Shown: positions 43,637 through 64,000, counted from the stretch's first letter. The stretch: 64,000 nucleotides of DNA from an uncultured Gemmatimonadales bacterium (GCA_963695555.1 CAVOGR010000001.1:608001-672000), one strand, 5' to 3'. Numbers and translations are program-made. The notes: a model not told the origin generated them from the sequence alone.

Positions 43637-44640
43637 GACGGCTCCGGCCGCTTGGTGCGCGCCCCGAAGGGACGTGGCTGGGTCGCACGATTGATGAACG
43701 GCACCATCGCGTTCATGAGCAGAATCGCGTACATGACGCCTTCGGCCAACCCACCCCAATACCGGATGACCACGACCAGGAGCCCGATCCCGACCCCGAA
43801 TATCCAGCATCCGGCGTTCGTCACGGGAGATGTGACCATATCGGTGGCCATGTACACCGCACCCAACATGAGGCCGCCGGAAAAGAGCATGGCCATCGCA
43901 CCGGCGTACCGCACCCCGTCGATGGTGTGGAGAAGCGCGGCAAAGAGGGCCACGGTGAGGAAGATGCTCGCAGGGATCCGCCAGTTGAGGTGCTTGCGGA
44001 GCGCCAGATAGGCGCCGGCCAGCAGAATCACGACGCCGGACGTTTCACCCAGCGATCCACCGGTGGCTCCGATCATCAGGTCCCAGAGGCCGGTGGGCGT
44101 CTGCTCGAACTTCATGAGGCCGAGCGGTGTTGCGCCGGTCAAGGCATCGACGACGCGGGGACTCGCGAACGGCAGGGCCAGGTTGTCTCCCCGGAACTGC
44201 CACCACGACTGGGGGGCGATCGGCCAGGTCGTGAGCGCAACCGGGAAGGCCGCTTGCAGGAAGGCGCGCCCGAGGAGTGCCGGATTGAAGACGTTTTGCC
44301 CCAGGCCCCCGAAGATCAACTTGCCGAACGCGATCGCGAAGGCGCCGCCGACAAATGCCATCCAGACGGGTAAGCCCGCGGGAAGCGAGAGCCCGAGCAG
44401 GAGACCCGTGATCGTGGCCGAGCCGTCGCCGATGGCGCCCCGTTGACCGAAGATCCGCTCCGTCACGAGGGCACCTGCCGTGGCGCCAACCAGCACCAGC
44501 AGGACGCTCGGTCCGAAATAGTAGGTGGCGATGGCAATGACCGGGACGAGGCTCCCGACTACCGACCACATGATCGTCGGCGTGCTATCGCGCCCGGAGA
44601 TATGGGGCGACGCCGCGATGAGAAGTCGGGGCGTCGTCAT
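43633..44640 (-). CDS. rnfD: Rnf complex subunit D
   Basis: SPH, FGGLGQNVFNPA, DALTGATPL (FMN-Thr), GSLGETS, MATDMVTSP. Confidence 0.94.
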   Translation of the reverse strand: MTTPRLLIAASPHISGRDSTPTIMWSVVGSLVPVIAIATYYFGPSVLLVLVGATAGALVTERIFGQRGAIGDGSATITGLLLGLSLPAGLPVWMAFVGGAFAIAFGKLIFGGLGQNVFNPALLGRAFLQAAFPVALTTWPIAPQSWWQFRGDNLALPFASPRVVDALTGATPLGLMKFEQTPTGLWDLMIGATGGSLGETSGVVILLAGAYLALRKHLNWRIPASIFLTVALFAALLHTIDGVRYAGAMAMLFSGGLMLGAVYMATDMVTSPVTNAGCWIFGVGIGLLVVVIRYWGGLAEGVMYAILLMNAMVPFINRATQPRPFGARTKRPEPS

Positions 44641-45962: not shown

Positions 45963-45969
45963 CAGGGCC

Positions 45970-48900: not shown

Positions 48901-51009
48901 GAAAGCGGCGGTGTCCAGCGTCTGGACTTCATCGAAGCCGCGCCGGATGACGCGCAAATTGTCCTCCACCACCCGCTTGCCTCGGCTGCCGAACTTCTTG
49001 GACATCTGCGCGCGAATGCCGTCGAACAGCTTGACTTCATCCAGCCCTTCGCGCTCGATGAGTCCGGAGACCCGGAAGAACGCCCCCATGAACGCGGCAC
49101 CCTGCATGCGGTACCGGAGATCGGGGTCGGATGCCTCTTCCATGGCGATCTTGAACGCATCGAGGAAGTGCACCCGGATGCCGCGGTCTTTGATCGCCTT
49201 GTGGCCGGTGGCCGGGAGACTGGCCCAAAACTCCTCCGGAGACCGGTCGGTTTGGATCACGAAGACGCCGCCCTCGGCGAGCCCCGCGAGGGGATCGGAA
49301 TGGCGGAACACGTTGGGATCGGGTGAGAGCACGACGTTCACATTCTTGAGCTCGCAGTTGAGCCTGATGGGCTCCTTGGCGAGCACCGCATAGAACGTGG
49401 TCGGCTGGCCCTTCTTTTCCGACCCGTACTTGGGGTTGGCCTTGATGTACATGCCTAGGAGTTCCGAGGCCGTCATGGCGACGTTCTTCCCCATCGTGAT
49501 CGCCCCCCAGCCACCCACGGAATGGATGCGAATGGCGGTGGATCCTTTGGGGAGGAGGTTGACGCCGTCCGCCGGTGGGAGCGACAGCTCCACCAGCTTG
49601 GGGTAGGTCTCCAAAAGTTCCTGCTGCCAGATCTCAAGCTTGGGCAGTCGGGTTCCCTGCCGGATGAAGTCGATCCCGAGATAGAACTGCCGCCGGTTCG
49701 CTCCTCCAGGCAGCATGTTCTCGACCGCCGCGATGAGATCGTGCGGTTGGAGATCGCGGCTGCCGAGTCCGAAACACCCCGCGTAGAAGGCCGGTACCTC
49801 GGACGGGCCGCATGCGGCTAGGCCCGGGAACGGGGCCGAACCGTTGCCCCGCGAATTTTCCGCGGCCTTGCTCATCGCCGCACGGATCTCACGGAGAATT
49901 GGTGGATCGACCGCGAGCGGCTGGTCCAGCCGCTCGAGCACCGTCACGGCCCGCTTGCCCTTGAGCAAGTGGGTGATGACATCCGCGGGGAAGGGCCTGA
50001 ACATCGTCACGTTCAGGATGCCGATCTTGAGTCCGCGGGTCTCGCGCAGATAGTCGCACACCGCCTCGGCGTTGGGCACCACCGAGCCCTGCCCGGCGAT
50101 GACGAACTCGGCGTCATCCAACCGATAGCCCGAGGCCCGCGCGTATTGCCGGCCCGTCAAGGCGGCGTATTCCGCGAAGACCTGGTCGGTAAGCGCCAGC
50201 AGGTGGTCGAAATAGAACGGACGTTGGGCCGCGACACCTTGCTGGTAGCTGTCCTGATTCTGCACGACGCCCGTCATGGTCGGGTAGTCGAGATCGAAGA
50301 TTTCGGGAATCCGGCGACGGCGGTCACCGAAGACGTATCGCTGCGCCGGCGTGGGAGACTCGATCATGTCGGAGGGGTCGCCAAGGAACTCCTTGACGAG
50401 CTCGCGCTCCGGCATGAGGACGGATTCGATGACGTGGCTGGTGAGGAACCCGTCTTGGGCGCAGATGCCGGGATTGAGCGACAGCTCGGCGACCTTGTGG
50501 GCAATCAGGTTCAGATCGGCCGCCTCTTGCGCGTCCTTGGCGAAGAGCTGGAAGAACCCGGTATCGTCCACCGCGTGATAGTCGTCGTGCCCCGCGTGCA
50601 CGTTGAGCGCGTGCTTGGTCATGGCCCGTGCGGCGATGTTCAGCACGTAGGTCAAGCGCTTCCCGACCGCGGCGTACAGCGACTCGTGCATGTACGCGAT
50701 GCCCTGGCCGCTGGAGAAGTTGGTGGCGCGGAGTCCTGCCATGCTCATTCCGGCAGTGACCGCGGCCGCGGCGTGTTCACCTTCGGGCTCGAAGAAGATG
50801 AGCCGTCGGCCGTTGACGTTGGTCTTGCCCTCGGCCACGGCAGCCGCCCAGCCTTCGCCCATCTGGGTCGACGGGGTGATCGGATACGCTCCGGCTCCTT
50901 CGCTGGCCGCCGTTTCCATCTCGACAATGGAGCTGGTGCCGTCGACCGCCGTGGGAATGCCGGGGTACTTCGGTGAAGCAGTCGGGGGAGTCTTCTTCTT
51001 GAAAATCAC
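45970..51009 (-). CDS. Single-chain pyruvate:ferredoxin/flavodoxin oxidoreductase (NifJ-like) with fused C-terminal ferredoxin
   Basis: YPITPS, two CxxCxxCxxxCP motifs, GACMGCGE, NSTGCSS, GGDGA...DTQVYSNTGGQ TPP motif; C-terminal CTTCDEC...CP domain. Confidence 0.92.
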   Translation of the reverse strand: MIFKKKTPPTASPKYPGIPTAVDGTSSIVEMETAASEGAGAYPITPSTQMGEGWAAAVAEGKTNVNGRRLIFFEPEGEHAAAAVTAGMSMAGLRATNFSSGQGIAYMHESLYAAVGKRLTYVLNIAARAMTKHALNVHAGHDDYHAVDDTGFFQLFAKDAQEAADLNLIAHKVAELSLNPGICAQDGFLTSHVIESVLMPERELVKEFLGDPSDMIESPTPAQRYVFGDRRRRIPEIFDLDYPTMTGVVQNQDSYQQGVAAQRPFYFDHLLALTDQVFAEYAALTGRQYARASGYRLDDAEFVIAGQGSVVPNAEAVCDYLRETRGLKIGILNVTMFRPFPADVITHLLKGKRAVTVLERLDQPLAVDPPILREIRAAMSKAAENSRGNGSAPFPGLAACGPSEVPAFYAGCFGLGSRDLQPHDLIAAVENMLPGGANRRQFYLGIDFIRQGTRLPKLEIWQQELLETYPKLVELSLPPADGVNLLPKGSTAIRIHSVGGWGAITMGKNVAMTASELLGMYIKANPKYGSEKKGQPTTFYAVLAKEPIRLNCELKNVNVVLSPDPNVFRHSDPLAGLAEGGVFVIQTDRSPEEFWASLPATGHKAIKDRGIRVHFLDAFKIAMEEASDPDLRYRMQGAAFMGAFFRVSGLIEREGLDEVKLFDGIRAQMSKKFGSRGKRVVEDNLRVIRRGFDEVQTLDTAAFSVAEGEVGAPPVMPAILDGTNVRPGMGNPGRFWEQVCALYKTGDDGIADPFAAMSAIPAATSTIRDMTDIRFEVPKFIADKCTGCAQCWTQCPDAAIPGVVSEIDEVIHAAIASVSNGRTFDRLRQIVKPLSMESRRILKGVSLTSFSDVLSTAYRTVTDKLNLSPERRRELDDEFAPVYSALVEFPLAKTGPFFDLPESKEKGTGGLLSITVNPEACKGCNLCVEVCPDQALITIKQDEEVVDQLRRTWKVWQHLPETNDRYVNIASLEEGIGVLSSLLLKQSNYRSMAGGDGACMGCGEKTVVHLVLSAVNALMLPRVKRYVERLDGLIAQLDAKARGILASEVDLDGVARILDGGDIPLQGEKKAVVERISRMLRDLKDLRWRYTEGPSGKGRATVGMANSTGCSSVWGSTYPYNPYPFPWVNHLFQDAPSIAIGVFEAHMRKMADGFVAVRRAELELADQYDPAEHEREFTRFEWRQFNEDEFDMCPPIIALGGDGAMLDIGFQNLSRLLASGKPIRVVVLDTQVYSNTGGQACTSGFLGQVSDMAAFGKGQHGKEETRKEMSLIAMAHRNVFVLQSSQAASSHLIGGVLRGLQSHYPSVFMLHSPCPPEHGLGDDASTKAARLALETRAYPVLVFDPAQGTSFPERLSLDGNPSIRDTWPEYDLKYQDEDGNEAVMTLPLTIADWAATETRFKKHFSPLARDAEGEYVPFHEYLELAPEEREGHTPFIYVHQDGNRLGRLVASNEIVRLAEDRLEVWSQLKQLAGLEATEEVRGLVEESVEQEFAAKVEALRAEYEAKIADLKTRYPRVIARRMAEGLVRAGNGQRTVADLLAQVQSQPGLAPLRLEPGESDLRAAPAASATAAAAPVAVAPASAAAPAAVEEEEEEGLVLGPWIDSARCTTCDECTNMNKRMFAYNDKKQAYIKDPKAGTFKELVMAAEKCPVQIIHPGTPLNPKEKDLAKWMKRAEPFA

Positions 51010-51858
51010 GCGTATGCCCTCTCAGCTGTCGGGGTGCGCTCGAAGGTCTGAGCGCCGTCAACCCACACGATCGCACCCGTGGGACACCGTGCCGTCGCCT
51101 GCAGGAGTGGCGAGGCTGTTCTTAGAATAGTCGATGACGGCCAAGCCGTTCACCATCGCGATCAGTCCGGGAGCCGCATCCAGCGCGCACTTGCCGCATC
51201 CCGTGCAGGCGACCTGGCAGACCGCTTCCGCCTCGTCGCCCTCGAGCAGGTTCTTGCATTGCACGATGAGCATCTGCTCGACGGGCATCAAGGTGAACAG
51301 GTCCTTCGGGCAGGCCTCCACGCAGTCGCCGCATGCCGTGCAGCGCTCCGGGATCACGACCGGAAGCTCCGCATCGTTCATATAGATCGCGTCGAAGTCG
51401 CACGCGATCTCACAGTCCGCGAGGCCGAGGCAGCCCCACGAGCAGCCCTTCCCGCCGCCAGCGACCGCCGCGGCCGCCTTGCAGGTCTGGAGCCCCCGGT
51501 ACTCGGCCTGCGGCGGGGCGACGTCGCAGCCGCCCGCGCACAGGAGCCGGGCCACCCGCTTGGTGGCCTCGCCCGCATCCACCCCCAGATAGGAAGCCAT
51601 GTCCGTTACCTGGTCGGGGCCCATCACGGTGCAGGTTGCCGGTTGGATCTGTCCGTCGATCAGGGCCTCGGCAAATGCCCGGCACCCCGCCTTTCCGCAG
51701 GCGCCGCAGTTGTTGCCCGGGAGCATGTCGGCCACCGCATTGATCCGGGGGTCTTCCCACACCCAGAACTTGCGGTTCGCAAGGGCGATGAGGGTGGCAA
51801 AGACCAAGCCGACTCCGCCCAGGATGGCGACCGAGACCAGTACCGTCGTAAGGTCCAT
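51006..51858 (-). CDS. rnfB: Rnf complex subunit B (one-base frameshift near 51100)
   Basis: TM, LPGNNCGACG..GC, polyferredoxin Cys; removing one base restores ...ATARCPTGAIVWV... ending in GTGA overlap with PFOR. Confidence 0.9.
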
Positions 51859-51869
51859 GGACGCTCCAG

Positions 51870-52892
51870 TCAGCTCACGTCGGTGAGATCGGCCTGCTGC
51901 AGAAGCCAGGCGGCGAGTTTGTCGACCGGATCGGCTGCGGTCTCCGGGGCTCCAGCCGGAAGGCCTCCGACCGAGGCGTCGCCGCGGGCCGGACCGCTGG
52001 GCTTGGCCGCTTCTGCCATGGCGGTCAACTGCCGAAGTTCCTCGGCCTGCTGACGCGGACTCAAGCCGCCCGTGGAGCGCGTCGGTTCCCGTGATGGTAC
52101 CGATCCGATCGAGAGCCGCTGCCACGGTGCCGCGCCCGCTGCCGGATCGTGGGTGAACACGGCCGCCGTTTCGGGCATGAGGGCCGCCACTCCCGGTCCG
52201 TCCCAGGCAGCGAAACGGTCTAGGCCGCTCACCACGTGCGTCTGCATCACAAAGGTGCCCGGCGTGATTAGACGGACCAGCGGGGCCGGGGGGGCCTCTC
52301 CCCGAACGACCAGGACGAGCTTCTGCGATCCATCCAGGAATTCCGCCACGCCGCCGGTCCGCAGATCGGCGCCGTCGACCGTGACCACCAGCGGCGGCGC
52401 TAGCGCACGCTCGCGCCGGCTCCACTCGGGGAACGCGAAGCCATCCAGGCTCGGCGCCCGCGTGGTGCGCGCCGCTCCTCCGGACCGGGCCTGATCGAAC
52501 GCGCGAGCAGCACCGAAGGCGCGTCCAATTTGTTCGAGCGCCTGGCCGACCGTCGCGGTGAGGTTCCCTCCCGACGGCACGTCCACGAGGAACAGGTCCC
52601 GATCGAGCGCCGCCAGATCGCGGATTGTGTCGCGGGCCTTCTGGATCGTCTTGAGGAGCCGCCCATCCAACGACGCGGTTGCGAACAGGGACGAAAACCG
52701 TTCGCCATCGATGCGGCTGCCGGCAAACGGCCCGAGCTCGACCGTCATGCGCTCCCGGGTCCCATTGGAATTCCCGCGGTTCGCGATGTAGTGGTCGACC
52801 TGGTCGGCTGTGGTTCCAAGGGCGGCAAGGAAGGCATCGCGCTGGCCCGCCAGGGCCTGGAAGACGAGGTCCACGCGGTCGTCAGACGGCAT
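51870..52892 (-). CDS. Uncharacterised protein resembling a degenerate PFOR TPP-binding (beta) domain
   Basis: Collinear motif similarity to the neighbouring PFOR C-terminal half (see findings); no Cys ligands. Confidence 0.7.
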   Translation of the reverse strand: MPSDDRVDLVFQALAGQRDAFLAALGTTADQVDHYIANRGNSNGTRERMTVELGPFAGSRIDGERFSSLFATASLDGRLLKTIQKARDTIRDLAALDRDLFLVDVPSGGNLTATVGQALEQIGRAFGAARAFDQARSGGAARTTRAPSLDGFAFPEWSRRERALAPPLVVTVDGADLRTGGVAEFLDGSQKLVLVVRGEAPPAPLVRLITPGTFVMQTHVVSGLDRFAAWDGPGVAALMPETAAVFTHDPAAGAAPWQRLSIGSVPSREPTRSTGGLSPRQQAEELRQLTAMAEAAKPSGPARGDASVGGLPAGAPETAADPVDKLAAWLLQQADLTDVS

Positions 52893-53835
52893 ATCGATCC
52901 AGCTCCGTGTTGAGCAACGCCAGCTTCTGTTCTGCGGACTGGAGGTGCTCGCGCCGCACCTCCTCGTACACCGGCAAGCTCGCATTCCGATAGAACATGC
53001 CGAGGCGCACCTTCCCGTCGACCTGGGCCAGGCGATGTGCCTCAGTCAGGTCGGAAGGGTCGTGGACGACATGGTTCTGGTAGAGCGCCTCGACGTCCGG
53101 GGCCACGATTCCGTTCGGATGTACGAGGAGTTCGACGTTCTTCGGGTCGCGGACGGCGTCCAAGAAGAGCGTCTCGGTGAACTTGGGACACCGCTGAAGG
53201 ATCCGAATGAAGGAAAAGCCGCGGTGGTGGAACCCCGCCGAGAGCGTTTGAAACAGATGCTCAGGAATCCAGTCACCGGTCTGGGCCACGAACGAGGCAT
53301 TGGTGACGCCAAGTGTTGTGGAGATCGGATTGAGGCCCGGGAGATAGGCACCCCTGGGCTGAGTATTACTGGGTTGCCCCTGCGGCGAGGTCGGCGACGT
53401 TTGGTTCTTGGTCAGGCCGTACACGCCATTGTCCAACATCAGCACGACCATGTCCGGGTTGTACCGGGTCGTGTGGATCCAGTGCCCGGCGCCGATGGAG
53501 CAGCAGTCCCCGTCACCCATGACCACAAAGACGTGGAGGTCGGGGCGACGGAGTTTCACACCCGTGGCGACGGGAAGCGCCCGGCCGTGCAGGCCGTGGA
53601 AGCCGTAGGTGTGGAGGTAGTGGGGGAAGCGGCTGGAACACCCGATGCCGGACACGAACACGGTGCGCTCGGGCGGCAGTTGCTCGGTTTCCAACAGGCG
53701 TTCGACCGCGGCGAGGACGGCGTGGTCTCCGCACCCAGGGCACCAGCGCGCCGTGGCTCCGGCATAGTCGTCCATAGTGAACGAACGATCGTCGTCCGTT
53801 CCGCACCCCAGCAGTGAGCAGCCCTCCTCGATCAT
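52882..53835 (-). CDS. 2-oxoacid:ferredoxin oxidoreductase beta subunit (KorB-like)
   Basis: WCPGCG, SGIGCSSR, HGR, GDGD...DNGVYGLTKNQ.SPT. Confidence 0.93.
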   Translation of the reverse strand: MIEEGCSLLGCGTDDDRSFTMDDYAGATARWCPGCGDHAVLAAVERLLETEQLPPERTVFVSGIGCSSRFPHYLHTYGFHGLHGRALPVATGVKLRRPDLHVFVVMGDGDCCSIGAGHWIHTTRYNPDMVVLMLDNGVYGLTKNQTSPTSPQGQPSNTQPRGAYLPGLNPISTTLGVTNASFVAQTGDWIPEHLFQTLSAGFHHRGFSFIRILQRCPKFTETLFLDAVRDPKNVELLVHPNGIVAPDVEALYQNHVVHDPSDLTEAHRLAQVDGKVRLGMFYRNASLPVYEEVRREHLQSAEQKLALLNTELDRYAV

Positions 53836-55746
53836 GACGTGGCTCCCTTCGCCAGATGGGCGAGTATGGCCTGGTGAATCATCTTGGGCTGGAGTGGCTC
53901 GCCCGGCACGCGTGTCCAGCAGTCGACATCGACCAGCGTCGTTGCCCGGAGCAGCCAGGCCAGCTGCCCCCGGCGTCGATTCTCGTCGGTAATGAACGGA
54001 TCGTCGGGCTCGTCGCTGTAGTTGATCTCGACGGTCATGACCTTGCCGAACCGGTGGAAGATATCTTTGAGGCCGGGCTCGAGCGGCGAGAGGAAGCGGA
54101 GGTGGAGCGAGGAAACCGCGAGGCCCTCCGCTCGTGCCCGATCGACCGCTTCATTGATGGCCCCCTCGGTGCTCCCCCAGCCCACGACCAAGAGATCGCC
54201 GGCGTCATCCCCACGGACCGTGGGAGGCCGGAGCGTGCTCTGAAAGACCGCCAGCTTGCGACTGCGCATGGCGCAGCCGAGCTGGTTCACTCCGGGGCCG
54301 TAGGCGACCTTGCTCCGCTCGTCGTGGGCCAGGCCGGTGGCGGTGAACATCCCGCCGGGTTGGCCGGGAATGATCCGGCGGGAGAGCCCGGCCTCCGGAT
54401 CCCATTGGTAGGGCAGGGTGCCCTCCGGAACGGGGCTCAGGTCGACCGGAGCGGCGATCCACTCCGTGGTCACCTCCGGCCGAAGGAAGGGCTGAACCCC
54501 GGTGGCCAGGTTGGCATCCGACAGCACCATCACGAGGCAGCGGAATGCCTCGGCGATGCGCCGGGCCGTGATCATGCAGGCAAAGCACTCTTCGATGGTG
54601 GCCGGGGCGAGGACGACGTGGGGCGTGTCGCCGGGCTGCCCGAAGATGGCGGCCAGGAGATCCGATTGCTCGACCTTGGTCGGCAGTCCCGTGCTCGGCC
54701 CGCCGCGTTGCACATCCACCAAGCACGAGCGGCGTTTCGGTCATGACGGCAAGGCCAAGGAACTCGGTCTTGAGCGCCAAGCCCGGGCCGGAGGTGATGG
54801 TGAACGCCACCTTGCCCGCGTAGGAGGCTCCGATCGCAACTCCCACCGCCGCGATCTCGTCCTCGGCCTGGTGGACGACGCCGCCAAAGTCCTCGAAGAC
54901 CTCGCTCAGGTAGTGCGACGCCGAGGTGGCCGGGGTGATGGGGTACATGGCACAGAGTTCCATGCCCGCCGCGATCGCGCCCAGGCCGACGGCTTGGTTG
55001 CCGTTCATGACGACCATGGCCCTCTCGCTCTTGGCGATGGGGACCTCAACCCGGAAATCCAGGTGGTCCTCAGCCCAGCGGATTCCAGCTTCCAGGAGGG
55101 CAATGTTGGTGTCGATCACCTCCTGTGACTTCTTTCGGAACTCATTGGCGATGAGCATGCGGAGGATGTCGGCGTCCCGGCCATACACGCCGGCCAACAG
55201 CCCGAGCGCGAACATGTTCTTACCGCGTGCCGGGATGTCCAGGATCTTCTGGCACTCCTCTTCCATCGGCACCCGAATAAACTGGTAGGAGCGCTGCCCC
55301 AGCTCCTCCATGGCCGTCTGCCACTCCTCGCGGATCGTGGGATCCTCGTGGGTTTCCCACTGGCTCTCGATCAGGATGATGGCGTCCTCGGCCAAGGCGT
55401 CGAGGCGATGGCGGGACAGCAACACCTGCTCGTTGAATGCCACCACTACGTTGGCGGCGTCACCCCAGTTGGTAACCGGCTCGGTGCCGATACGGATACG
55501 GTTGCCGCTCGCGCTGCCGGGCGTGCGGGCCGGCGGCTGGATTTCGGCGGGGATGATCTCGACCGTCCACACCCCGTTCCCCATGCGGGCCGACGTGCGA
55601 CCGAACAGCTGACCGCACTTCTGTGCGCCCTCGCCCGAGTCGGAGACGATCTCGACCGTGTGCTCGGGGACCCGGATCTGGGTCGGGGGTCCTTCGAGAA
55701 CGATGGCGGTCGCGGAGTCGACAGGGTTGGAGGCGGAGGAGTTCAT
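53832..55746 (-). CDS. 2-oxoacid:ferredoxin oxidoreductase alpha subunit (KorA-like; one-base frameshift near 54721)
   Basis: DSGEG gamma domain, GNQA, YPITPA, QAEDEIAA, TSGPG; continues after one extra base as VDVQRGGPSTGLPTKVEQSD. Confidence 0.92.
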
Positions 55747-55962
55747 GGGTGTTCCGGTGCCAAAGTCGTGGATGGGTGGCCAGGTCAGGTCCCGGGCCAC
55801 ACACATTCTAGCTCGTGGAAGGCCCCAGTCGCAGTGACGCTCAACCACGTGTGAAGGCCCGGCCTGCTACCAGGTTCATGAAGCCGGGTAAATCCTTACG
55901 AATCTTAAACTAAGGCCAGCAATAATGGCATAAGAAACCATGAAGGAATCTTCATTGTTGGC

Positions 55963-56895
55963 TCAAACAGGCCCCGCCGGGCGTGCCGCCAGTCGCAGCC
56001 CACCGAGCCTGGCGGCTATCCAACTCCAATTCACGAACAAGAGCAAGTGGAACATGCTCACGAAGAAGATTTGCATGCTCAACAAGATGGCCAGATGAAA
56101 GCCCACGGCGGCCGGGACGAGGATACGGCGCGCCATCTTCGAGAAGAGCGTCGTCACGAATACCAGCTCGAACAGGAATACGGCGACCGCCCCGAGTGTC
56201 GTCAGCACGGCAGACCCGGCGACGAGCGATCCCAGGTTGCTGACCTGGTGCCCGGGGACGATGTGGGCGAAGAGCACGGCTTGACGGCCGATTTGTTCCG
56301 GACTGAACCAGCCTAGTCCATGGTGATACAGCTTTCCCCAGAACCCGAACAGGTAGATCTGCGCCACGAAGAGCTGCATGAGGCGGAGCGGCCAGGTGTA
56401 CTCCCAGTGGGGTGCGATGGACGCCGCGCCACCGGTGCGACGGCCTACTCGCCAGACGTCGGCACACCTGGCCGCCGAGAGCACCACCAGGCTCAGGACC
56501 GCAATAGTGAAGCCCCGCGCGTGAGGGTCCGTTTCGACCAAGAACGTCTGGAGCGGCGCGAGGTGGTACAGCATCACCGCAGCCGCCAGCGCTGCCACGC
56601 GTGTCCAGAGCCCCAAGAGCACGGCCAGGAGGGCGACGAGCGCGAGTGCCTCGATGATCTGTTCCACCCCGGGGTGACCCGGGAAGATGAGAAAGCGCCA
56701 TTGGGCCGAGAGCCGTGCTTGCCACCAGAATCCCTGGGGAATACCGGACAGCGCCGCTATGTCCCAGGACCAGACAACCCACATTGCATGTGCCGCGATG
56801 ATAATACGCGCCGCCGACAGATTTGCGGCGGCGCCGGGCGTGTACCACAGTCGCTGCCACTCGTGTTTCAGCCACCCTAGCAATCGCGCACTCAT
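55963..56895 (-). CDS. HTTM-domain (SdpB / vitamin K-dependent carboxylase-like) membrane protein, copy A
   Basis: Multi-TM; WPLRLMQLFVAQIYLFGFWGKL...GW, FEL, GFH motifs. Confidence 0.75.
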   Translation of the reverse strand: MSARLLGWLKHEWQRLWYTPGAAANLSAARIIIAAHAMWVVWSWDIAALSGIPQGFWWQARLSAQWRFLIFPGHPGVEQIIEALALVALLAVLLGLWTRVAALAAAVMLYHLAPLQTFLVETDPHARGFTIAVLSLVVLSAARCADVWRVGRRTGGAASIAPHWEYTWPLRLMQLFVAQIYLFGFWGKLYHHGLGWFSPEQIGRQAVLFAHIVPGHQVSNLGSLVAGSAVLTTLGAVAVFLFELVFVTTLFSKMARRILVPAAVGFHLAILLSMQIFFVSMFHLLLFVNWSWIAARLGGLRLAARPAGPV

Positions 56896-57548
56896 GGCGC
56901 GATGTACTCGAAGACGAGGCTGCGCGGTTGGTCCGCTGCCGCTTGTGGAGGCTCATCGAGGTTGGCGTGAAACTGGTAGATCCTGAGCCCCTTCACGTCG
57001 AGCGGGCTCATACTGTCGCCGTGCGTCCACACCGGCGGCAGCACCAGCCGGGGACGCGCGGCCAACGGCCCCCGGTCGCCAGGAAGGCGACGGCCCGCGT
57101 CCAGGTCTCCGCGTGCCCTGGCGATTTTGTCGAGGAGCCAGGGGGCCACTTGGGCGAATGCCTCCGGATTCCGACGGCGGGTCCGCTCGAGCCAGGTATG
57201 GAGGTCCATCCAGTCGATGGGATAGAGCGCTCGCAAGTCCAAGTCGTGCTCGACACCCTTGTCGTCGACGACGACGGGACGGAGGCCCGAATACTCAGCC
57301 ACGAAATACTCGTTGTCCATCGGCCAATGAGTGAAGGGCCACATTTCGTGCTGCATCGCCCCAACCGCCATGCTCACCACCACGGAGAATGCCACGAGGA
57401 GGCCCACCCCCCTGCGCCGCTCACCCGGCGAGCGGACGAGCAGGCTGCCGGCGCGTACCGCCAAAACGACGAAGGTAAGGAATACCACGAGCCGGGCCAT
57501 GTCCGCGATTGCCGTCAGACTCGACACTGGCCCTCGGATGTCTTGCAC
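56892..57548 (-). CDS. Two-TM anchored HTTM partner protein, copy A
   Basis: Two TMs then EMWPFTHWPM soluble domain; ATGA overlap with HTTM copy A. The start may be ATG 57500. Confidence 0.72.
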   Translation of the reverse strand: MQDIRGPVSSLTAIADMARLVVFLTFVVLAVRAGSLLVRSPGERRRGVGLLVAFSVVVSMAVGAMQHEMWPFTHWPMDNEYFVAEYSGLRPVVVDDKGVEHDLDLRALYPIDWMDLHTWLERTRRRNPEAFAQVAPWLLDKIARARGDLDAGRRLPGDRGPLAARPRLVLPPVWTHGDSMSPLDVKGLRIYQFHANLDEPPQAAADQPRSLVFEYIAP

Positions 57549-57647
57549 GGAGGGAGCATATTTTCGAGTGAATGCGTTGGCAGAGCCCGTGTGTCGTGAG
57601 CTCGGCGAAGGGTGGGGCGCAAGCTTAGGCGCTCACTTCGAGCGGAG

Positions 57648-57851
57648 TCACCCCGCGTCACCGGCACCACTCGACGACGTGGCAACCGCCTTTAAGGCAA
57701 AGCGCATGGCCTCACCGAGTAATTCGGGAGGATAGGCCTGGAGGAATGGTTCTGGAGGATCCACGTATAGCCAGAAGATCTCCATGCACTGTTCGTCGCT
57801 CAGCTCCTCGATCCAATCAGTGCCGGCTACGTCCGGGCTCTGTTGTGCCAT
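57648..57851 (-). CDS. 67-aa acidic peptide (candidate precursor or accessory protein)
   Basis: GGAG RBS; MAQQSPDVAGTDWIEELSDEQCMEIFWLYVDPPEPFLQAYPPELLGEAMRFALKAVATSSSGAGDAG; fills the intergenic gap. Confidence 0.6.
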   Translation of the reverse strand: MAQQSPDVAGTDWIEELSDEQCMEIFWLYVDPPEPFLQAYPPELLGEAMRFALKAVATSSSGAGDAG

Positions 57852-57966
57852 CGACCGCTCCACGTCCGGAATAGGTGGTATGGGTGCGCGCTCCGGCCTG
57901 CAATCTGTGCGTGATAGCGGCACCAGGACAAGCGAATGAGGACCTCACACGTCGTGCGAGTGAGTC

Positions 57967-59154
57967 TCAGCTGCTTTCCGGCGTCCGCGTGGCGGGCAGA
58001 TCTCGGGAACCCATCAGCTTGACCGCGCCGGCAATCGGCAGCGCGCTCGCGACCAAGAGAGCCCGATATGCCGCTCTGACGGATACCCGCCAGGCTCGCC
58101 CCAGGCGAGGGAACCGGTGCTCCAGCCAGGCAATGAAGCGGTAGGGGGACGGCTCCAGGGTCCGTTGCCACACCTGATGGATCCAGAGCGCTCGGCGCTC
58201 CCGCCTGCCCAGCAGCAGCGCGAAGGTCCACTCGGCCAGGTCTCTGGCGCGGGCCGCGGAGACCGGAAGTCTCCGTGTTAGCTGCCTCACCAGGTAATGG
58301 GCGAGCGCCAGGTGGCGGAACCGATCGGCGGTCGGAACACCCGTCGACATTGCGTGCGCCATCGCAAGGACGTCGCCGAGTGGTGTTGCGTACTCGTGTT
58401 GATCGACTCGTGTCTTCAGCCCGGTCAGCTCCTCGGCCCCGCATGCTGCGACCGCATCGGCCACCACGATCACGTCCCGCAACCGACCCCGCCGGTTCGG
58501 ATGGTCCACCACGGCATGCCGGAGGACATGCCACAGATGATCAGCCGGCGCGAGCGCGTGCAGGCCGGAACAGCCGGGAACCGGCGTGAGCCCATGCCAC
58601 ACTCGCTCGGCGGGTGGCGTGCCGTCCGCGTCGAGGCTGAGGTGAATCTCGACTGGCAGGGCATTGGGCGTAATCCGGGCACCGAGATGCTGGGCGGTGC
58701 TGAAGATGGCGCCGTGGCCCCGCTCATCGAGGATGGTTGCCAGGGCCCCCGCCGCGGCCCCCGGTAGGAGGATGTCGACGTCGTTGAGGTCGACCGGCCC
58801 GGGGCCGACGAGCGCGGACAGCCCGCCCTTGAGCACGGCCGGGCGCCAGTCTCGCTCCAGCGCGATCCGCCCGAGCTCATGCAGTTGGCTCCGTGCGGAG
58901 AGGACCCGGGTCTGCTCGTCCAGGGCCCGCTCGCGGATCGCGTTCTGGACCTCCGAAGTAAGCTGCGGGAGATGACCCGTGGTCTCCAGGCATCGCTCGA
59001 GCCGGATGGCACAACGCTCGGCACGCAAGAACGCGTGCCATGTCGCGGGTGAGCAGGCAAGTGCCGGCTGCCACGTGGGTCCGGCGGGCAGGCCACTCAG
59101 CGTTCGCAGAGCCAGTTCGCGAAGTCGGAGTGCTCCGCGGGGCGATCCGCTCAT
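57967..59154 (-). CDS. Nucleotidyltransferase family protein (NTP_transf_5-like)
   Basis: VLKG...DVDILL...VEIH...HVLRH...RLRDV, pol-beta-type motifs. Confidence 0.8.
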   Translation of the reverse strand: MSGSPRGALRLRELALRTLSGLPAGPTWQPALACSPATWHAFLRAERCAIRLERCLETTGHLPQLTSEVQNAIRERALDEQTRVLSARSQLHELGRIALERDWRPAVLKGGLSALVGPGPVDLNDVDILLPGAAAGALATILDERGHGAIFSTAQHLGARITPNALPVEIHLSLDADGTPPAERVWHGLTPVPGCSGLHALAPADHLWHVLRHAVVDHPNRRGRLRDVIVVADAVAACGAEELTGLKTRVDQHEYATPLGDVLAMAHAMSTGVPTADRFRHLALAHYLVRQLTRRLPVSAARARDLAEWTFALLLGRRERRALWIHQVWQRTLEPSPYRFIAWLEHRFPRLGRAWRVSVRAAYRALLVASALPIAGAVKLMGSRDLPATRTPESS

Positions 59155-59170
59155 GTCGGATGAAGTCGAA

Positions 59171-60106
59171 TCACGGCACAGCAGCGTGGAGCGGGACTCG
59201 AGGAGCGCCTGCCGGGCGCTTCAACGCCTTGAGCCACACCCAATCCCAGTTCACGAAGATCAGCAGAAGCAGCGCAGTGACGAAAGTCAAATTCATCGCA
59301 TATGCGATACCGATATGGAATGCCAGCGCGGCAGGCACGAACCAGCGCCGGGCCATGGACGAGAACATGACGGACACAAATCCGAACTCGAGGACGAGTG
59401 CGCCAATGGCGATTCCGAGGCAAATCGTGGGATGCGACGCGATCCAGAGCCCAAGCGCCTGGAAGCGGGCCACTTCGGGGTCCTGCACCAGATAGAGAAT
59501 CCAGCGCCGGATGTTGTCGGCGGACACCCAGTCCAATCCCGTCCGCACGATCTTCGACCAGCCGGAGAAGAGATAGATTTCGCATATCAGCAGCTGGATG
59601 AGTCGAAGCTGCCACGAGTAGGCCAATCCTGGGCTCGGCTCGCGGTTTCGGCCGGGTGTAATGAGGGAAAGGCGGTCATCGCAGCGCGACAGGGAAAGGA
59701 GGATGAGAGCCAAGACGGGAATGGTGAGACCGCGAACGTACGGCGTCGATATCCAGATGATCCCTTCGAGTGGCGCCAGGTGGTAGAGCAGGATCCCGGC
59801 TATGGCACAGCACACGCGGGCGTAGATACCTACCAACGCTCCGACGAGCGTGACGAGCGCCACGACGAGGAGAATACGCTCCAGTTCCGGGTGACCGGGG
59901 AAGACGAGGTACCGCCACATCGTGCTCGGGTCCACCCGAGACCAGAAGACTGACGGTAGCCCGGAAATGGCTGGGTAGTCGCGGGAGAGGAGGATCCAAA
60001 GAGCCTGGGCCGCTACCAGCACTCGAGCCACTGCCAGATTGAGCGCAGATGCGTGCTGGAACCAGAACCAATCCCAGGACGAGCCCCTGGGAGCCACGCC
60101 TGTCAT
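59171..60106 (-). CDS. HTTM-domain membrane protein, copy B
   Basis: WQLRLIQLLICEIYLFSGWSKI...GLDW, LEF, AFH; aligns end to end with copy A. Confidence 0.78.
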   Translation of the reverse strand: MTGVAPRGSSWDWFWFQHASALNLAVARVLVAAQALWILLSRDYPAISGLPSVFWSRVDPSTMWRYLVFPGHPELERILLVVALVTLVGALVGIYARVCCAIAGILLYHLAPLEGIIWISTPYVRGLTIPVLALILLSLSRCDDRLSLITPGRNREPSPGLAYSWQLRLIQLLICEIYLFSGWSKIVRTGLDWVSADNIRRWILYLVQDPEVARFQALGLWIASHPTICLGIAIGALVLEFGFVSVMFSSMARRWFVPAALAFHIGIAYAMNLTFVTALLLLIFVNWDWVWLKALKRPAGAPRVPLHAAVP

Positions 60107-60819
60107 GGCGTCTGCTCCGGGAATTCGTGGAGCACCTCTCGGACGAGCTCGGTCCGGCCTTCATCGACATTCCACCATTCCCGAATGACCCGCACACCGA
60201 CGAACGGCTCGGCAGGGGCATCATCCGGCCGGGACCACACGGTGGGATGCAGCATGTGCTCCGGTGCGGTGAGCGGTCCGAGAAATCGATGGAGATACCC
60301 CACGCGGCGGCCCTGCCGTGCCTGGACTCGCCCTGCATTGGCACGATCGAGCAGCCAGCGGCTCGCCTCATCCTGCTCCGCGGGTGTCAGGGTGGTGAAT
60401 CGGAGATCGAGCCACGCGATCAGTTCTTCCCATTGGAGCGGATGCCAGGATCGAGAATCGACGACGTGTTCTTGGCCGTTCGCACCAATGGCGAACACGC
60501 GGGCGTGACCGACCTCGGGCGAGCGCACGTCGGGGATCATGGACCAGGCCGAGAACGGCCAGAGTTCTCGTCGCGAGAGTCCTGCTGCCATACTGATTCC
60601 CAGAGTGAACACCACGAGCGCATTGACGGCCCGCCGACGCGTGTACGATGATCGTCCGGTATGTTCCGTCCACCATACCCGTGCCGCCGAGAGAAGGAAC
60701 ACCACCCAGCCGAGGGCCGGCACCAGGTTCTTGACCCAGCGCGGGATGGTACTCTCCGCCATGAAATCTGGAATGCGCCGCTCTTGCACCGTCGCCCTCC
60801 GCAGTCGTGCTGCGATCAA
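60103..60819 (-). CDS. Two-TM anchored HTTM partner protein, copy B
   Basis: ELWPFSAWSM...EH.VD.R..HP..W..L..WL...WLLD...GPL.A......P.VW. Start is TTG 60819 (overlapping the formyltransferase stop) or ATG 60762. Confidence 0.72.
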   Translation of the reverse strand: MIAARLRRATVQERRIPDFMAESTIPRWVKNLVPALGWVVFLLSAARVWWTEHTGRSSYTRRRAVNALVVFTLGISMAAGLSRRELWPFSAWSMIPDVRSPEVGHARVFAIGANGQEHVVDSRSWHPLQWEELIAWLDLRFTTLTPAEQDEASRWLLDRANAGRVQARQGRRVGYLHRFLGPLTAPEHMLHPTVWSRPDDAPAEPFVGVRVIREWWNVDEGRTELVREVLHEFPEQTP

Positions 60820-61748
60820 AGATGATTCGTGGGGCCGGTATCGGGCAGGACCGGCACCCGGCCACTCAGGTGAACCACTCCGTCCTTGCAGTAGAGCAGG
60901 GCGCCGTCTGCGGTGCGCGCGACCGTCCCGGCGCGCTCGGCCACCGTCTGGTGGCGGAATCCCGGCACGCTGGCATACTCTACGGGTTGGCCCATGTCGT
61001 CGAGCAGGGGCTCATGGAATCGGGGGACCAGGCCCGCCAGAAAGTGCCACACTCGCTCGACATCCCACTCGGCGAAATCGACCATGCGGCTTCCGGGCCC
61101 GATCATCGGAGCGGCGGTGGCTCGCTGGTGGTCTTGGGGAATCCGGGGGGCTGTCCCACGCTCGACGGCCTCGAGGGCCCGCCGCAGCAGGGCGCCGCCC
61201 TCATGGGCGTTCCGTCGGTTCAGGGCTTCGACGGGGTACCCCCGTGGCAGCGGCATAGCGTTCTGAAGGAGGATATCGCCGGTGTCGGCATGTTCATCCA
61301 CCCAGTGCACCGTCACCCCAGTCTCGCGATCGTCCTGATAGTAGATCCAAAACAAGGGAAGGACTCCCCGGTGCCGCGGCAGTAATGACGGATGGCTATT
61401 GATGGCACCGATCGCCGGCACCGCGAGGAATGCGGGCGGGAGAATCCAGCGATACCCCGCGATGCAAAAGAGATCCGGCTGGAGTTCCTCGAGGCGTTCG
61501 ACGATGCGGATATCGTTGCCGGAGCGTGCCGCCCAACACGGGATGGCATGCTCCCTGGCCACTGCGGTGAGGACGTCCGGGGTGCCAATTCTGAGTGCCC
61601 GGGCGGCCGCGGCGACGCGCCGGCGAACTCGCGATCCTCGCGCGAAGGAAGCCGCGCGGATGACGGCCACGACGCGATGCTCATCCACGATCGACCGTAA
61701 GTGCTCAGCCGAATACTCGCCGCCCATGCCGAAGAACGCGATTTTCAT
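60816..61748 (-). CDS. N10-formyl-THF-dependent formyltransferase (Fmt-like)
   Basis: MKIAFFG, INSHPSLLPRHRG, GVTVHWVDEHADTGDI, plus a short C-terminal domain. Confidence 0.88.
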   Translation of the reverse strand: MKIAFFGMGGEYSAEHLRSIVDEHRVVAVIRAASFARGSRVRRRVAAAARALRIGTPDVLTAVAREHAIPCWAARSGNDIRIVERLEELQPDLFCIAGYRWILPPAFLAVPAIGAINSHPSLLPRHRGVLPLFWIYYQDDRETGVTVHWVDEHADTGDILLQNAMPLPRGYPVEALNRRNAHEGGALLRRALEAVERGTAPRIPQDHQRATAAPMIGPGSRMVDFAEWDVERVWHFLAGLVPRFHEPLLDDMGQPVEYASVPGFRHQTVAERAGTVARTADGALLYCKDGVVHLSGRVPVLPDTGPTNHL

Positions 61749-61895
61749 CAGTGGGCGACTGTGTCTCGGGCAACGCGACGCACGATCAAGCCGGTGCGGT
61801 GACGCATGGGGTGTGGGATCGTTGGGCGGCGGGATATGTTTGGCCCATGCACACCGATGGGTCTGAGTGACCCCGCGGCCGATCGATCGACGCCC

Positions 61896-62513
61896 ATGGA
61901 GAACGAGGTGCGCCACGTGAGGCCGGACGACGCGCCTGCGGCGGCTCGAGTCCGGGTGGTGGAGCCGTCGGAGGTCCGGGCTGTTGCCTCGCTGCTCAAG
62001 CGCTCGAACGAAGTAATCGAATCGCGAATTGTCGGGGCGAGCATGGGTGCCACGATGCCGGCGGGGACTCGGATCCGCATCCGGTGCGGCGACGTGTCGG
62101 AATGGTCGATCGGCGCAGTCGTGGTCTTCTTCACGGGACGCACCCTAGTAGGACACCGAGTCGTCGCACGGGGAACGGGACGGGCCAAGGACTATTGGGT
62201 CACGCGGGGCGATGGTACGATCTTCTGTGATGCGCCGGTGCACCAAGACGTGATCCTCGGGGTGGTGACTGAGTGCGCGGGTGGAACCGACTGGCACCCG
62301 GTGCCCGCCTGTGTCCCGGCCGGCTCCGTTCGTCGACTGGCTGCAAGCGCCGCCGGCGCCATCCTTCGCTTATTGCTCAAAATCGACGTTGCCGTTGCCA
62401 CGCGGTGGGCCACGGGGACCGTTCGATTGGGCCATGGGTTCAGGCGGCTCCGTGGTGAGAAGCTCGGGACCCGGCCCGCCGCCGCCGGCCAGGACGACTC
62501 GCCCGGCGGCTAG
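61896..62513 (+). CDS. S24/S26 family (signal-peptidase-like, Ser/His type) peptidase
   Basis: GASMGATM..G, GHRVV, TRGDG...D.PV...ILG; no N-terminal TM. Confidence 0.78.
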   Translation: MENEVRHVRPDDAPAAARVRVVEPSEVRAVASLLKRSNEVIESRIVGASMGATMPAGTRIRIRCGDVSEWSIGAVVVFFTGRTLVGHRVVARGTGRAKDYWVTRGDGTIFCDAPVHQDVILGVVTECAGGTDWHPVPACVPAGSVRRLAASAAGAILRLLLKIDVAVATRWATGTVRLGHGFRRLRGEKLGTRPAAAGQDDSPGG

Positions 62514-62521
62514 CTGCGGTC

Positions 62522-63304
62522 TCAATCGATTCCCAGTCGCTCCCGTACTGCGGCCCGGCGGGCATCGGACTGCTGGACCGCCACCTCGACCTCGCCCGGA
62601 TCGAAGCCCGCCTCGAGCCGCGCCTCCGTGGCCACCCCGTACTTCACGACGTTGGTGCCGCCCTTGGCGAAGACCTGCTCGAAGGCGCGCGCACCCTGGG
62701 TGAGGGCGCGGGACATGTGCAGCACGTTCCGCGGATCCTTGCCGAGTTGCTCCTTGATCCAGTCGTTGGCGAATCGGATGTGCAGCACTTCGTCGGCCTG
62801 CTGGGTCTCATACATCTCGGCGAGTTTGTCCTCGCCGTCCCGTCGGGCCTCCTCAATGGCGTGCGTGACCGCATCCAGTCCGTCGGCCTCGAAGGTCCGG
62901 TTTTGGACGGCGAGGCGCCCGACGAGCGTATCGATCTTCCGAAGAATCCGGTACTGGAAGTTCATCACCGGGTATTGGCCGACCTCTCCGCCACGTGCCT
63001 CGAGGAGCTCGCGGTAGGTGTCGACATGACGCGCTTCATCAGCAGCCTGCCGGGCCAACCAATACCGGATGTTCCAGTCGGCGTCCGGGAAGTCGGTGAT
63101 ATTGCTGGCCGCGTTTTCCAGGACGTTGCATTCCTCGTTCATCTGCCGGTGGAAGAACTCCATTTTCCACTCGGGATCATCCTCCGGCAGGTTGACCATG
63201 TCGACCCAGACTTCCTTCACGGTAAAGCGTTCGTCGCGCGCGGGACCCTCTCCGAAGAACGCAGGGTCGAGTGCCGGGTGGATCGTCGATGCCATGGTGT
63301 TCAC
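62522..63304 (-). CDS. DUF455-like ferritin-fold di-iron protein, paralogue 2
   Basis: H.QMNEE...DEARH...NRTFEA..LD...ADEVLH..F...W; GTGA overlap with paralogue 1. Confidence 0.82.
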   Translation of the reverse strand: MNTMASTIHPALDPAFFGEGPARDERFTVKEVWVDMVNLPEDDPEWKMEFFHRQMNEECNVLENAASNITDFPDADWNIRYWLARQAADEARHVDTYRELLEARGGEVGQYPVMNFQYRILRKIDTLVGRLAVQNRTFEADGLDAVTHAIEEARRDGEDKLAEMYETQQADEVLHIRFANDWIKEQLGKDPRNVLHMSRALTQGARAFEQVFAKGGTNVVKYGVATEARLEAGFDPGEVEVAVQQSDARRAAVRERLGID

Positions 63305-64000
63305 CTTAGGGCGGATGGAATGATGGTGCGGAATCCGGCCTGGCTGAGCACTTCCTTGATTTCATCCATCGTAAACTCTGCCTCGAGCCGATCCTCGATA
63401 TTGACCGCCGGGGGGCGGAGCTTCTCTTCGGTCCACACCGTCCCGACGACGTTGGTCTCGCCTGGTTTGAGCTGCATGGAGCCGATCGCCTTTCCCAGAA
63501 AGCGTACGGCCATCGCCACCTTCAGCAGGATGGCCGGATTCTCCTCGGTCATGCGCTTGATCCACCGGTTCCCGAAGCGCACGTGGGTAATCTCGTCGGC
63601 CAGGATGCTTTCGAGCATGTCGGCGGTGGCATGATCGCCTTCCTTCCGCCATTTGTCCCGGAGCGTGCCCAGGAGATCGATCAACCCCGCCTCGAAGGTG
63701 CGGTTCTGCACCGCGAGGCGGCCCGGCAGGTTGTCCAGCATGTTGGTTACGCCCCATTCGAAGTTTGCGATGGGGAACTCGCCCTTCGCGCCGCCCATTT
63801 CCACCAGCCGGTTCAGCAGGAGGTCGGCGTGCCGGGCCTCATCCGTGGCCTGCCGCGCCAGGTTCATGCGGAGGCCCCAGGGCGCCTCCGGGAAGTCCAC
63901 CAGAGCCTGCGCCGCGATTTCCATCGCGCCGGTCTCATTGTTCATGTGGCGGTGGATCCGCTCACGGCGGGAAATCTCCGACATGTCGGGCCACTCGTGC
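63301..64000 (-). CDS. DUF455-like ferritin-fold di-iron protein, paralogue 1 (5' end probably outside the window)
   Basis: HRHMNNE...DEARH...NRTFEA...ADEITHVRFG.RW; frame open to the window edge (..HEWPDMSE). Confidence 0.82.
   Translation of the reverse strand, partial: HEWPDMSEISRRERIHRHMNNETGAMEIAAQALVDFPEAPWGLRMNLARQATDEARHADLLLNRLVEMGGAKGEFPIANFEWGVTNMLDNLPGRLAVQNRTFEAGLIDLLGTLRDKWRKEGDHATADMLESILADEITHVRFGNRWIKRMTEENPAILLKVAMAVRFLGKAIGSMQLKPGETNVVGTVWTEEKLRPPAVNIEDRLEAEFTMDEIKEVLSQAGFRTIIPSALR

Follow-up and report, generated by a model that had tools for sequence, protein, structure and literature searches.

We analyzed a stretch of 64,000 nucleotides (nt) from an uncultured Gemmatimonadales bacterium (CAVOGR010000001.1:608001-672000), hereafter the window, to whose full length all coordinates refer. 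On its minus strand it carries two copies of a two-gene membrane module, each consisting of an HTTM gene and a partner gene. The first pair is made up of HTTM1 (59171..60106, 311 amino acids (aa)), a membrane subunit with the fold of γ-glutamyl carboxylase (GGCX) and a lysine, Lys185, and of partner 1 (60103..60789), in which a transmembrane (TM) hairpin is joined to a domain that faces the periplasm and, by prediction, completes the active site. The second pair is made up of HTTM2 (55963..56895, 310 aa), a diverged copy of the GGCX-fold subunit, and partner 2 (56892..57548), with two predicted TM helices, a WPFxxW loop and an α/β domain. In both pairs the partner gene overlaps its HTTM gene by the four bases ATGA, seen as 'tcat' on the plus strand at 56892-56895 and 60103-60106, as an earlier inspection of this DNA (hereafter the sequence-only reading) had claimed. 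Its description of a duplicated two-gene HTTM module also held: both HTTM open reading frames (ORFs) and both partners are present, the HTTM proteins being identical at 117 of 298 positions (39%, E 1e-68) and the partners at 55 of 165 (33%, E 4e-24). All the shared motifs that it had listed were found in the translations, those of the HTTM proteins (NL..AR, SG.P..FW, WR[FY]L.FPGHP, LYHLAPL, RG.TI..L, RC.D, W.LRL.QL....IYLF..W.K and FH) as well as those of the partners (E.WPF..W.M, EH..D.R...P..W..L..WL and GPL.A......P.VW). For partner 1, the probable start is GTG 60789 or ATG 60762, where close homologues begin, rather than TTG 60819. Only HTTM1 passed the cut-off of the Pfam HTTM domain PF05090 (30.8 bits vs 27.7); Pfam and NCBIfam scans gave no significant match for HTTM2 or for either partner.

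The two pairs are not adjacent, and both belong to a gene cluster for a peptide made on the ribosome and modified after translation (RiPP) that extends beyond the window end, which the sequence-only reading had overlooked. They are separated by a gene for a conserved 67-aa protein (57648..57851, minus strand), residues 2-67 of which have no Pfam or NCBIfam match, and by an LppN-like accessory gene for an NTP_transf_5 nucleotidyltransferase (57967..59154, minus; PF14907, E 4e-14), which has the same position in a genome of the same genus, G201 (locus L098). Upstream of pair 1 lie a formyltransferase gene (60816..61748, minus; PF00551, E 9e-31), which in most loci adjoins the partner on this side, a gene for an S26 or archaeal-type signal peptidase-like protein (61806..62513, plus; TIGR02228, E 5e-7, under the cut-off; start uncertain), a candidate LppS-like leader peptidase, and two genes for DUF455 ferritin-like diiron proteins, the core cluster enzyme DUF455b (62522..63304, minus; PF04305, E 2e-21) and DUF455a (63301..64000, minus), which runs beyond the window end. 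Past this end (locus L001) follow genes for a 191-aa protein, an HprK-like kinase, a 43-aa precursor ending in ...YVAP...FQITSAGASWWG, a PqqD-type RiPP recognition element (RRE), a sterol-desaturase-like protein and AsnB. Nearly the whole cluster is on the minus strand, the S26 peptidase gene being on the plus strand. Of four RNA runs examined as contigs, the best showed flat cover over the whole 20 kb, although DNA carry-over would look alike.

To place the pairs in a wider context, we used 50 loci obtained by an HTTM-alignment scan of genome contigs, the named ones being mostly from Acidobacteriota and Gemmatimonadota, with two from Pseudomonadota. Core cluster genes were present in 35 of the 50, and in 24 of the 26 that were at least 12 kb long; the formyltransferase was found in 37, a precursor in 32 and the S26 peptidase-like protein in 29. 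The 32 precursor-bearing loci yielded 27 distinct cores, in which F, Q and Trp-Trp are invariant (motif FQ[IVL]TxAxxWW), and 26 of the 27 have no Asp or Glu after FQ, the core boundary being taken from the system of the linear polyphosphorylated peptides (LPP). By the same analogy, the core of the window genome would be about eight residues long, SAGASWWG. It is quite likely that the pair acts in the RiPP pathway of its cluster. The genome also contains two futalosine-pathway genes (PF02621), and therefore menaquinone is probably available.

The structural relationship of the HTTM subunit to GGCX, which the sequence-only reading had proposed to check, was clear. With an AF2 model of HTTM1 (predicted local distance difference test (pLDDT) 90.5), GGCX accounted for each of the 15 best Foldseek rows (lowest E 3.3e-4, TMq 0.63), and in VIA it was matched with Z 11.7 and a root-mean-square deviation of 4.3 over 197 residues, the next chain having Z 7.7. 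A search of PDB sequences with the close-family profile (A1) found nothing, and the distant-relative profile (A5) alone reached human GGCX (E 2e-9); an hhalign comparison of the HTTM family with 90 bacterial GGCX-type proteins gave 98.9%, in the same register as the alignment with human GGCX. The HTTM subunits are thus members of the HTTM/GGCX-fold superfamily, HTTM2 through its 39% identity to HTTM1. By profile alignment, which is not a residue-level structural superposition, Lys185 of HTTM1 corresponds to GGCX Lys218, Trp193 to Trp223, Glu240 to Asp263 and His264 to His287, while Phe275 lies at most one residue from Phe299; the roles of these GGCX residues are those given in PMC12647623. Among 57 cluster-linked HTTMs, the Lys is kept in 56 (the remaining one has an X), Trp193 in 57, Glu or Asp at position 240 in 52, His264 in 55 and Phe275 in 46. 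The catalytic-type Lys is invariant (87/87), in agreement with the earlier proposal that it is the equivalent of the GGCX catalytic base.

The carboxylase activity on Glu or Asp that this proposal implied was not supported. In GGCX, the substrate carboxylate is held by a clamp of Asn159, His160 and Tyr395, the mutation of which impairs the enzyme (PMC12647623). All 90 bacterial GGCX-type proteins compared have the Asn-His part of the clamp, which is replaced by P-x-x-R-G in cluster-linked HTTMs (Arg in 38/57, His in 3/57). Similarly, the equivalent of Asn290 is Asn in 89/90 GGCX-type proteins vs 8/57 cluster-linked HTTMs, where it is mostly Ile. More distant HTTMs retain a His at the clamp column in 42 of 67 cases, and therefore the loss of the clamp is specific to the cluster-linked family, in which Ser41, Arg42, Arg65, Tyr108-His109 and Glu114 are conserved instead. 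Judged from these alignments, the base-generating side of GGCX is retained and the glutamate side is rebuilt. A classical Glu/Asp carboxylase, with the precursor's Glu residues, the acidic 67-aa protein or a secreted protein encoded elsewhere as its substrate, would fit the GGCX fold with its Lys, the conserved Glu residues that the precursors carry upstream of FQ and the position of the 67-aa gene just upstream of pair 2. However, Asn159, His160 and Tyr395 have no counterpart here, the likely substrate core lacks acidic residues, and the 67-aa gene occurs in only 9 of the 50 HTTM loci and persists in clusters without the pair, which makes this alternative very improbable.

The partner was modeled as a TM hairpin with an α/β domain (pLDDT 90.4). 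No Pfam family, PF22777 included, was found in a scan of 68 partner-family members, a PDB sequence search and Foldseek gave no match, VIA rows matched the TM hairpin only, and the ESM Atlas returned only unnamed clusters; such a lack of matches is no proof of a new fold. The last TM helix of the partner is followed by a W-P-F-x-x-W-x-M/L motif, as the corresponding part of GGCX is by Y395-G-Y-S-W399-D-M401 (register set by inspection). A complex prediction for the cognate partner 1 and HTTM1 scored 0.93 vs 0.01 for the best of three controls, above a mark passed by 116 of 157 solved pairs and 2 of 215 mismatched pairs; contacts agreed between runs to at least 95%, and the pLDDT of the partner was at least 88. 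In the predicted complex, Trp73 of the partner touches HTTM residues 177, 180 and 181 on the helix that carries the Lys, and the interface includes HTTM residues 183-185 and 192-193.

The genomic distribution of the two proteins points in the same direction. A partner is present in 49 of the 50 HTTM loci, an aligned partner lies directly upstream of 53 of 57 aligned HTTMs, related partners occur upstream of many distant HTTMs, and the pairwise identities of HTTMs and partners correlate (Spearman 0.76, confounded by ancestry). Natural fusions in the GGCX order, HTTM followed by a partner-like domain, were found in L085 and L088, and weakly in P0176. P0171 and P0219 were not counted as partner–HTTM fusions, their middles reading as frameshifted. 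The split-enzyme reading is favored because of the predicted complex, the L085 and L088 fusions with the upstream partners, and the split PF22777 pair of L055, and the models make it very likely that each pair is a heterodimer. Thus, the claim that each pair is a split membrane enzyme gained from both the GGCX fold of the HTTM subunit and the strongly predicted cognate complex. The hairpin loop of the partner contains on average 3.96 Lys/Arg vs 0.84 Asp/Glu, and by this charge bias it would lie inside; the partner domain and the Lys side of the HTTM would therefore face outside, toward the periplasm, as we infer from the positive-inside rule.

Several other architectures were seen alongside. 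L055 and L095 (G148) carry a split GGCX-type pair, in which a stand-alone PF22777 gene directly upstream passes the cut-off and the HTTM retains Asn-His. Further Gemmatimonadota partner+HTTM families (L060, L074, L077-L081 and L061, L075, L083, L086) have a WPFxxW/YxMY motif upstream and retain the His at the clamp position. In P0155, P0193, P0126, P0231, P0245 and P0256, the HTTM has a long C-terminal extension resembling, by eye, an NTP_transf_5, an S26-like or a DCC1-like thioredoxin domain.

The pair is not an obligatory part of the cluster. In a sample of 300 genomes of the phylum of the window (Gemmatimonadota), the DUF455a gene occurred in 10 other genomes, only 3 of which had an HTTM, and one genome, G045 (4 contigs, 97% complete), had an unbroken cluster with the formyltransferase, AsnB and the 67-aa gene and without the pair. 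A DUF455a-anchored metagenome scan, in which 49 loci under 7 kb were dropped and two of the loci (L117 and L118) scarcely differ from the window genome, gave an HTTM or a partner in 22 of 31 loci of at least 7 kb; two of the 31 had the formyltransferase–AsnB arrangement without the pair, and seven were too short to judge. The cores of pair-less clusters (e.g., FQVTSAGVSWWG) are nearly identical to those of pair-bearing ones. The possibility that the pair is the class-defining enzyme was rejected on the existence of such clusters, as in G045 and in the DUF455a genomes without an HTTM; the pair is therefore an accessory tailoring or protection function rather than the class-defining step.

This optional occurrence and the outward orientation would also suit an enzyme whose quinol site now serves to bind the product. 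According to this alternative, the diiron proteins would make an indole quinol or quinone, and the pair would bind the oxidized Trp-Trp unit and oxygenate or detoxify it, as a late oxidase or for self-protection. The invariance of Trp-Trp in 27 of 27 cores and the place of the ferritin-like proteins among the core genes agree with it, as does the frequent presence of an extra desaturase-like membrane oxidase, in the gap between DUF455b and S26, in pair-less clusters (G045, G096, G323, G247, L121, L125 and L138). On the other hand, it depends on a putative Trp chemistry of the cluster, two desaturase-like genes coexist with the pair in L017 and L041, and, as the pair-less clusters are closely related, the desaturase pattern may reflect one event. 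We therefore consider it rather unlikely.

Among the loci that are pair-less or cut short, L101, L103, L104, L115, L121, L125 and L138 have a second sterol-desaturase-like gene between DUF455b and S26, and L106 and L107 have there a gene for a different, 360-aa membrane protein. The 67-aa protein (62-86% identity, no family match) is tied to clusters of the Gemmatimonadota type, with or without the pair, and its gene often adjoins AsnB; it was also seen in L005, L012, L019, L020, L026, L032, L034, L043, L051, L102-L104 and L106-L108.

The reading that we prefer, with a probability of roughly 0.4, is that the pairs are a late tailoring enzyme that uses base chemistry of the GGCX type for epimerization or elimination, by analogy with linaridins, and not for Glu carboxylation. 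Within it, the choice of epimerization or elimination over other chemistry is only slightly better than even. Its substrate, cofactor and chemistry, as we infer them, would be as follows. The HTTM subunit would provide the membrane core and the catalytic Lys, and the partner the TM hairpin and the WPFxxW loop, which would close the active site in place of GGCX loop 395-402. The pair would carry out an optional, late, periplasm-facing step in the maturation of a RiPP that depends on an RRE and has a short Trp-Trp core. Its Lys would act as a general base, probably via membrane quinol and O2 as in GGCX, to abstract a C-H proton of the hydrophobic Ser/Thr/Gly/Ala/Trp peptide, which would be exported and met on the outer side of the membrane. 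The carbanion would then be reprotonated, converting an L-residue to a D-residue, or would eliminate the oxygen of Ser/Thr or phospho-Ser to give a dehydro residue, as has been attributed to the linaridin HTTM/LinL pair. Such chemistry appears the most likely because the Glu clamp is lost and the core has no acidic residue, and it is ranked first because linaridins offer the nearest known parallel, an HTTM protein that works with a small partner on a ribosomal peptide that is not acidic. In linaridins, the deletion of cypL, cypH, legG or legE blocks product formation, CypL, CypH, LegG and LegE are candidates for the formation of dehydrobutyrine, and D-residues have been reported. A 2023 study by Xue reportedly assigns both dehydration and epimerization to CypH and CypL themselves.

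Several points weigh against this reading. Cores with and without the pair are nearly identical, so the core sequence is no predictor of the pair. The homology of the partner to the lumenal domain of GGCX is argued from the motif together with the fusions and the contacts in the predicted complex; the hhalign comparisons with the GGCX-type C-terminus (2.4%, 4.0% and 10.8% via distant partners) are not significant. The distant partners match the cluster partners at 98% and the GGCX-type C-terminus at 10.8%, E 0.003 (controls 0.6% and 0.2%); their profile matches the stand-alone PF22777 partner of L055 weakly (E 0.04 among 1545 ORFs) and falls on FSWxM in no more than 9 of the 88 GGCX-type proteins. 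The high score of the predicted complex may stem from its likeness to solved GGCX. The precursors do have conserved Glu residues, upstream of FQ, which are assigned to the leader by analogy with the cleavage of LPP after F-E-T.

Another such point is that no ABC-type exporter that could bring the peptide to a periplasmic site was detected in a motif scan of the 50 loci and the cluster surroundings, vs 33 matches elsewhere in the genome. If this absence and the optional nature of the pair are taken together, the pair could be seen as a non-catalytic or transport device, i.e., a membrane receptor, a flippase or an immunity protein, in which the Lys would be structural and copy 2 redundant. However, pair-less clusters likewise have no exporter among their recognized genes (checked by eye), and the combination of the invariant Lys and Trp with an acidic residue inside a bundle of membrane helices, also kept in 66 of 67 distant relatives, argues for catalysis, so that we regard such a role as improbable.

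The last point against epimerization or elimination is the apparent retention of the Phe299 equivalent (register ± one residue): Phe299 of GGCX stacks on CO2 (PMC12647623), and its retention fits carboxylation equally well. Thus, the pair could be a quinol- and O2-dependent, MloH-like carboxylase acting on a non-acidic peptide carbon, such as the alpha carbon of Gly, Ser or Ala or a carbon of oxidized Trp, with AsnB possibly amidating the product. MloH indeed carboxylates the alpha carbon of Asp in a natural-product intermediate, as described in PMC12186529 and PMC12647623. The residues equivalent to the Lys, Trp, acidic residue and Phe at the quinol/CO2 site are retained, AsnB often flanks the pair, and the genome has menaquinone genes. 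Nevertheless, all carboxylations of the GGCX kind known to us occur on Glu or Asp, the carboxylate clamp is lost, AsnB is a soluble amidotransferase whereas the Lys side faces out, and AsnB persists in pair-less clusters. This alternative is therefore unlikely. We give a similarly low chance to a broader version, in which a GGCX-fold enzyme with retained quinol/O2 machinery would either carboxylate a non-acidic RiPP carbon or use oxidized Trp-Trp in the place of vitamin K, with the duplicates dividing positions between them, within a new RiPP class of short Trp-Trp peptides that extends across Acidobacteriota, Gemmatimonadota and Pseudomonadota.

Whichever reaction the pairs catalyze, epimerization or elimination being preferred, the two copies in the window do not appear to be the products of a recent tandem duplication, which was rejected because in a quick tree they were not sisters. 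HTTM2 grouped only with its orthologue from the same genus, on a long stem (0.97), and the genome concerned (L098) retains the block of NTP transferase, 67-aa gene, partner 2 and HTTM2. Between the window and L098, dN/dS of copy 2 was about 0.18 for HTTM and 0.22 for the partner, the same as for copy 1 vs L003, with dS near saturation; with these values and intact frames, copy 2 is not a decaying pseudogene. At 54 conserved columns, HTTM2 departs from the family consensus 9 times and HTTM1 3 times. The changes R42W, E114Q and N198Q (HTTM1 numbering) are common to the L098 orthologue, and the Lys, Trp, Glu, His and Phe equivalents are retained. These changes fit an altered specificity. The sequence-only reading had proposed that the two diverged copies act on different sites or substrates: their divergence, the purifying selection on both and the changes of copy 2 at family-conserved positions were confirmed, and the difference in site or substrate stays plausible. 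As far as sequence comparison goes, copy 2 is a second copy at the level of the genus, its substrate side has changed, and it probably acts on another peptide position or on a nucleotidylated form of the peptide.

In Acidobacteriota, the members of two-copy loci fall into different deep clades. Longer tails after Trp-Trp occur in all 10 loci that have a precursor and at least two HTTMs, and 8 of these tails end in Cys, vs 2 of 22 precursors of single-copy loci, both truncated by the locus end. As the multi-copy genomes are related, this association is a lead only. The Acidobacteriota loci with at least two pairs and long tails are L022, L028, L033, L036, L038, L039, L040, L042, L048 and L052.

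We compared the pairs with known systems. Human GGCX (PDB 9wfc and 9l21, among others; PMC12647623) and bacterial single-chain HTTM+PF22777 proteins have the same membrane-core fold and an active site on the non-cytoplasmic face, as predicted for the pairs, and GGCX has in common with the pairs Lys218, Trp223, Asp263 (Glu/Asp here), His287 and probably Phe299. It differs in being a single chain, whereas here there are two genes in reversed order with a partner that has no PF22777 match; Asn159/His160 and Asn290 are not retained here, and the context is that of a RiPP. The DUF5819+HTTM system (bioRxiv 10.64898/2026.08.19.745780) also consists of adjacent genes with a TM-anchored partner upstream, a predicted complex that resembles whole GGCX, and Lys, Trp and Phe near the quinol, and its authors likewise report an altered substrate channel. 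A predicted heterodimer rebuilding a GGCX-like site is thus common to both systems, here by prediction only. In contrast, the present partner has no DUF5819 (PF19136) match and has two TM helices, the present HTTM has no DCC1 domain, and the pairs are tied to a defined peptide cluster.

By gene make-up, the pairs can also be likened to linaridin LinG/LinH with LinL and to Bacillus SdpB with SdpA, in which an HTTM-type protein and a small partner are needed for the maturation of a ribosomal peptide. Unlike linaridin clusters, the present one has no methyltransferase or transporter among the genes identified, and no LinE-like alpha/beta-hydrolase was detected among the 17 proteins of the window cluster that were scanned; the precursor here is RRE-dependent with a very short Trp-Trp core, and the pair is optional, whereas it is class-defining in linaridins. 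The window HTTMs do not match the SdpB model (NCBIfam TIGR04033), nor the partners PF17418, while in the distant alignment TIGR04033 matches 2 of the 67 sequences (best E 3.7e-8). By the family-model tests made, the pair family is a member of neither DUF5819+HTTM nor SdpA/SdpB; linaridins were compared by description. MloH, the aspartyl alpha-carboxylase of malonomycin, is another bacterial GGCX-fold enzyme in natural-product tailoring, and differs, by its description, in being a single chain that acts on Asp of a polyketide synthase–nonribosomal peptide synthetase intermediate.

The rest of the cluster is close to LPP (PMC13381572): LPP has an RRE, a YxxP leader, an HprK-like kinase, an SpI-like peptidase and an NTP transferase in common with it, and an F-x-T-like motif at the leader end is likewise shared. 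LPP differs by an MsbA-like exporter and long cores, and the main text of the paper never mentions HTTM, a carboxylase or ferritin. In LPP the NTP transferase, like the exporter, is a core gene, whereas the NTP transferase of the window had no BLAST match in the 50 HTTM loci; matches occur in L098, L107 and L108. Our literature searches found no paper on the HTTM-pair family or its cluster, although the supplements of the DUF5819 preprint, the LPP paper and RRE-mining studies may list such loci.

For the majority of bacterial HTTM proteins, no reaction is known to us. What was already known is a split GGCX-like heterodimer (the DUF5819+HTTM preprint) and the two-gene HTTM-type systems of linaridins and SDP. 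The pair family adds a candidate substrate about 8-12 residues long, together with natural plus/minus controls, i.e., near-identical cores in clusters with zero, one or two pairs, which make the function of non-carboxylase GGCX-fold enzymes directly testable. The answer would bear on the evolution of vitamin K chemistry and on the maturation mechanisms of linaridins and SdpAB, and could reveal a possible new peptide-modifying catalyst.

A few minor observations concern the cluster and its surroundings. Extra precursor copies lie several kb from the main cluster in L017 (L017:3751-3933 and L017:19395-19550) and, together with PqqD, in L007 (L007:1075-1547). The cluster resembles an insertion between housekeeping loci: a ribosomal protein operon lies beyond its opposite end, and downstream of it, at 43600-55850 on the minus strand of the window, lies an operon for Rnf-like and pyruvate/2-oxoacid:ferredoxin oxidoreductase proteins (recognized by eye). 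In this operon, the alpha gene of 2-oxoacid:ferredoxin oxidoreductase (54205-55848 and 53832-54722, minus strand) is divided between two frames near 54720. At this site the RNA contigs of one run differ by one base (L001 position 722), so the split may be an assembly error.

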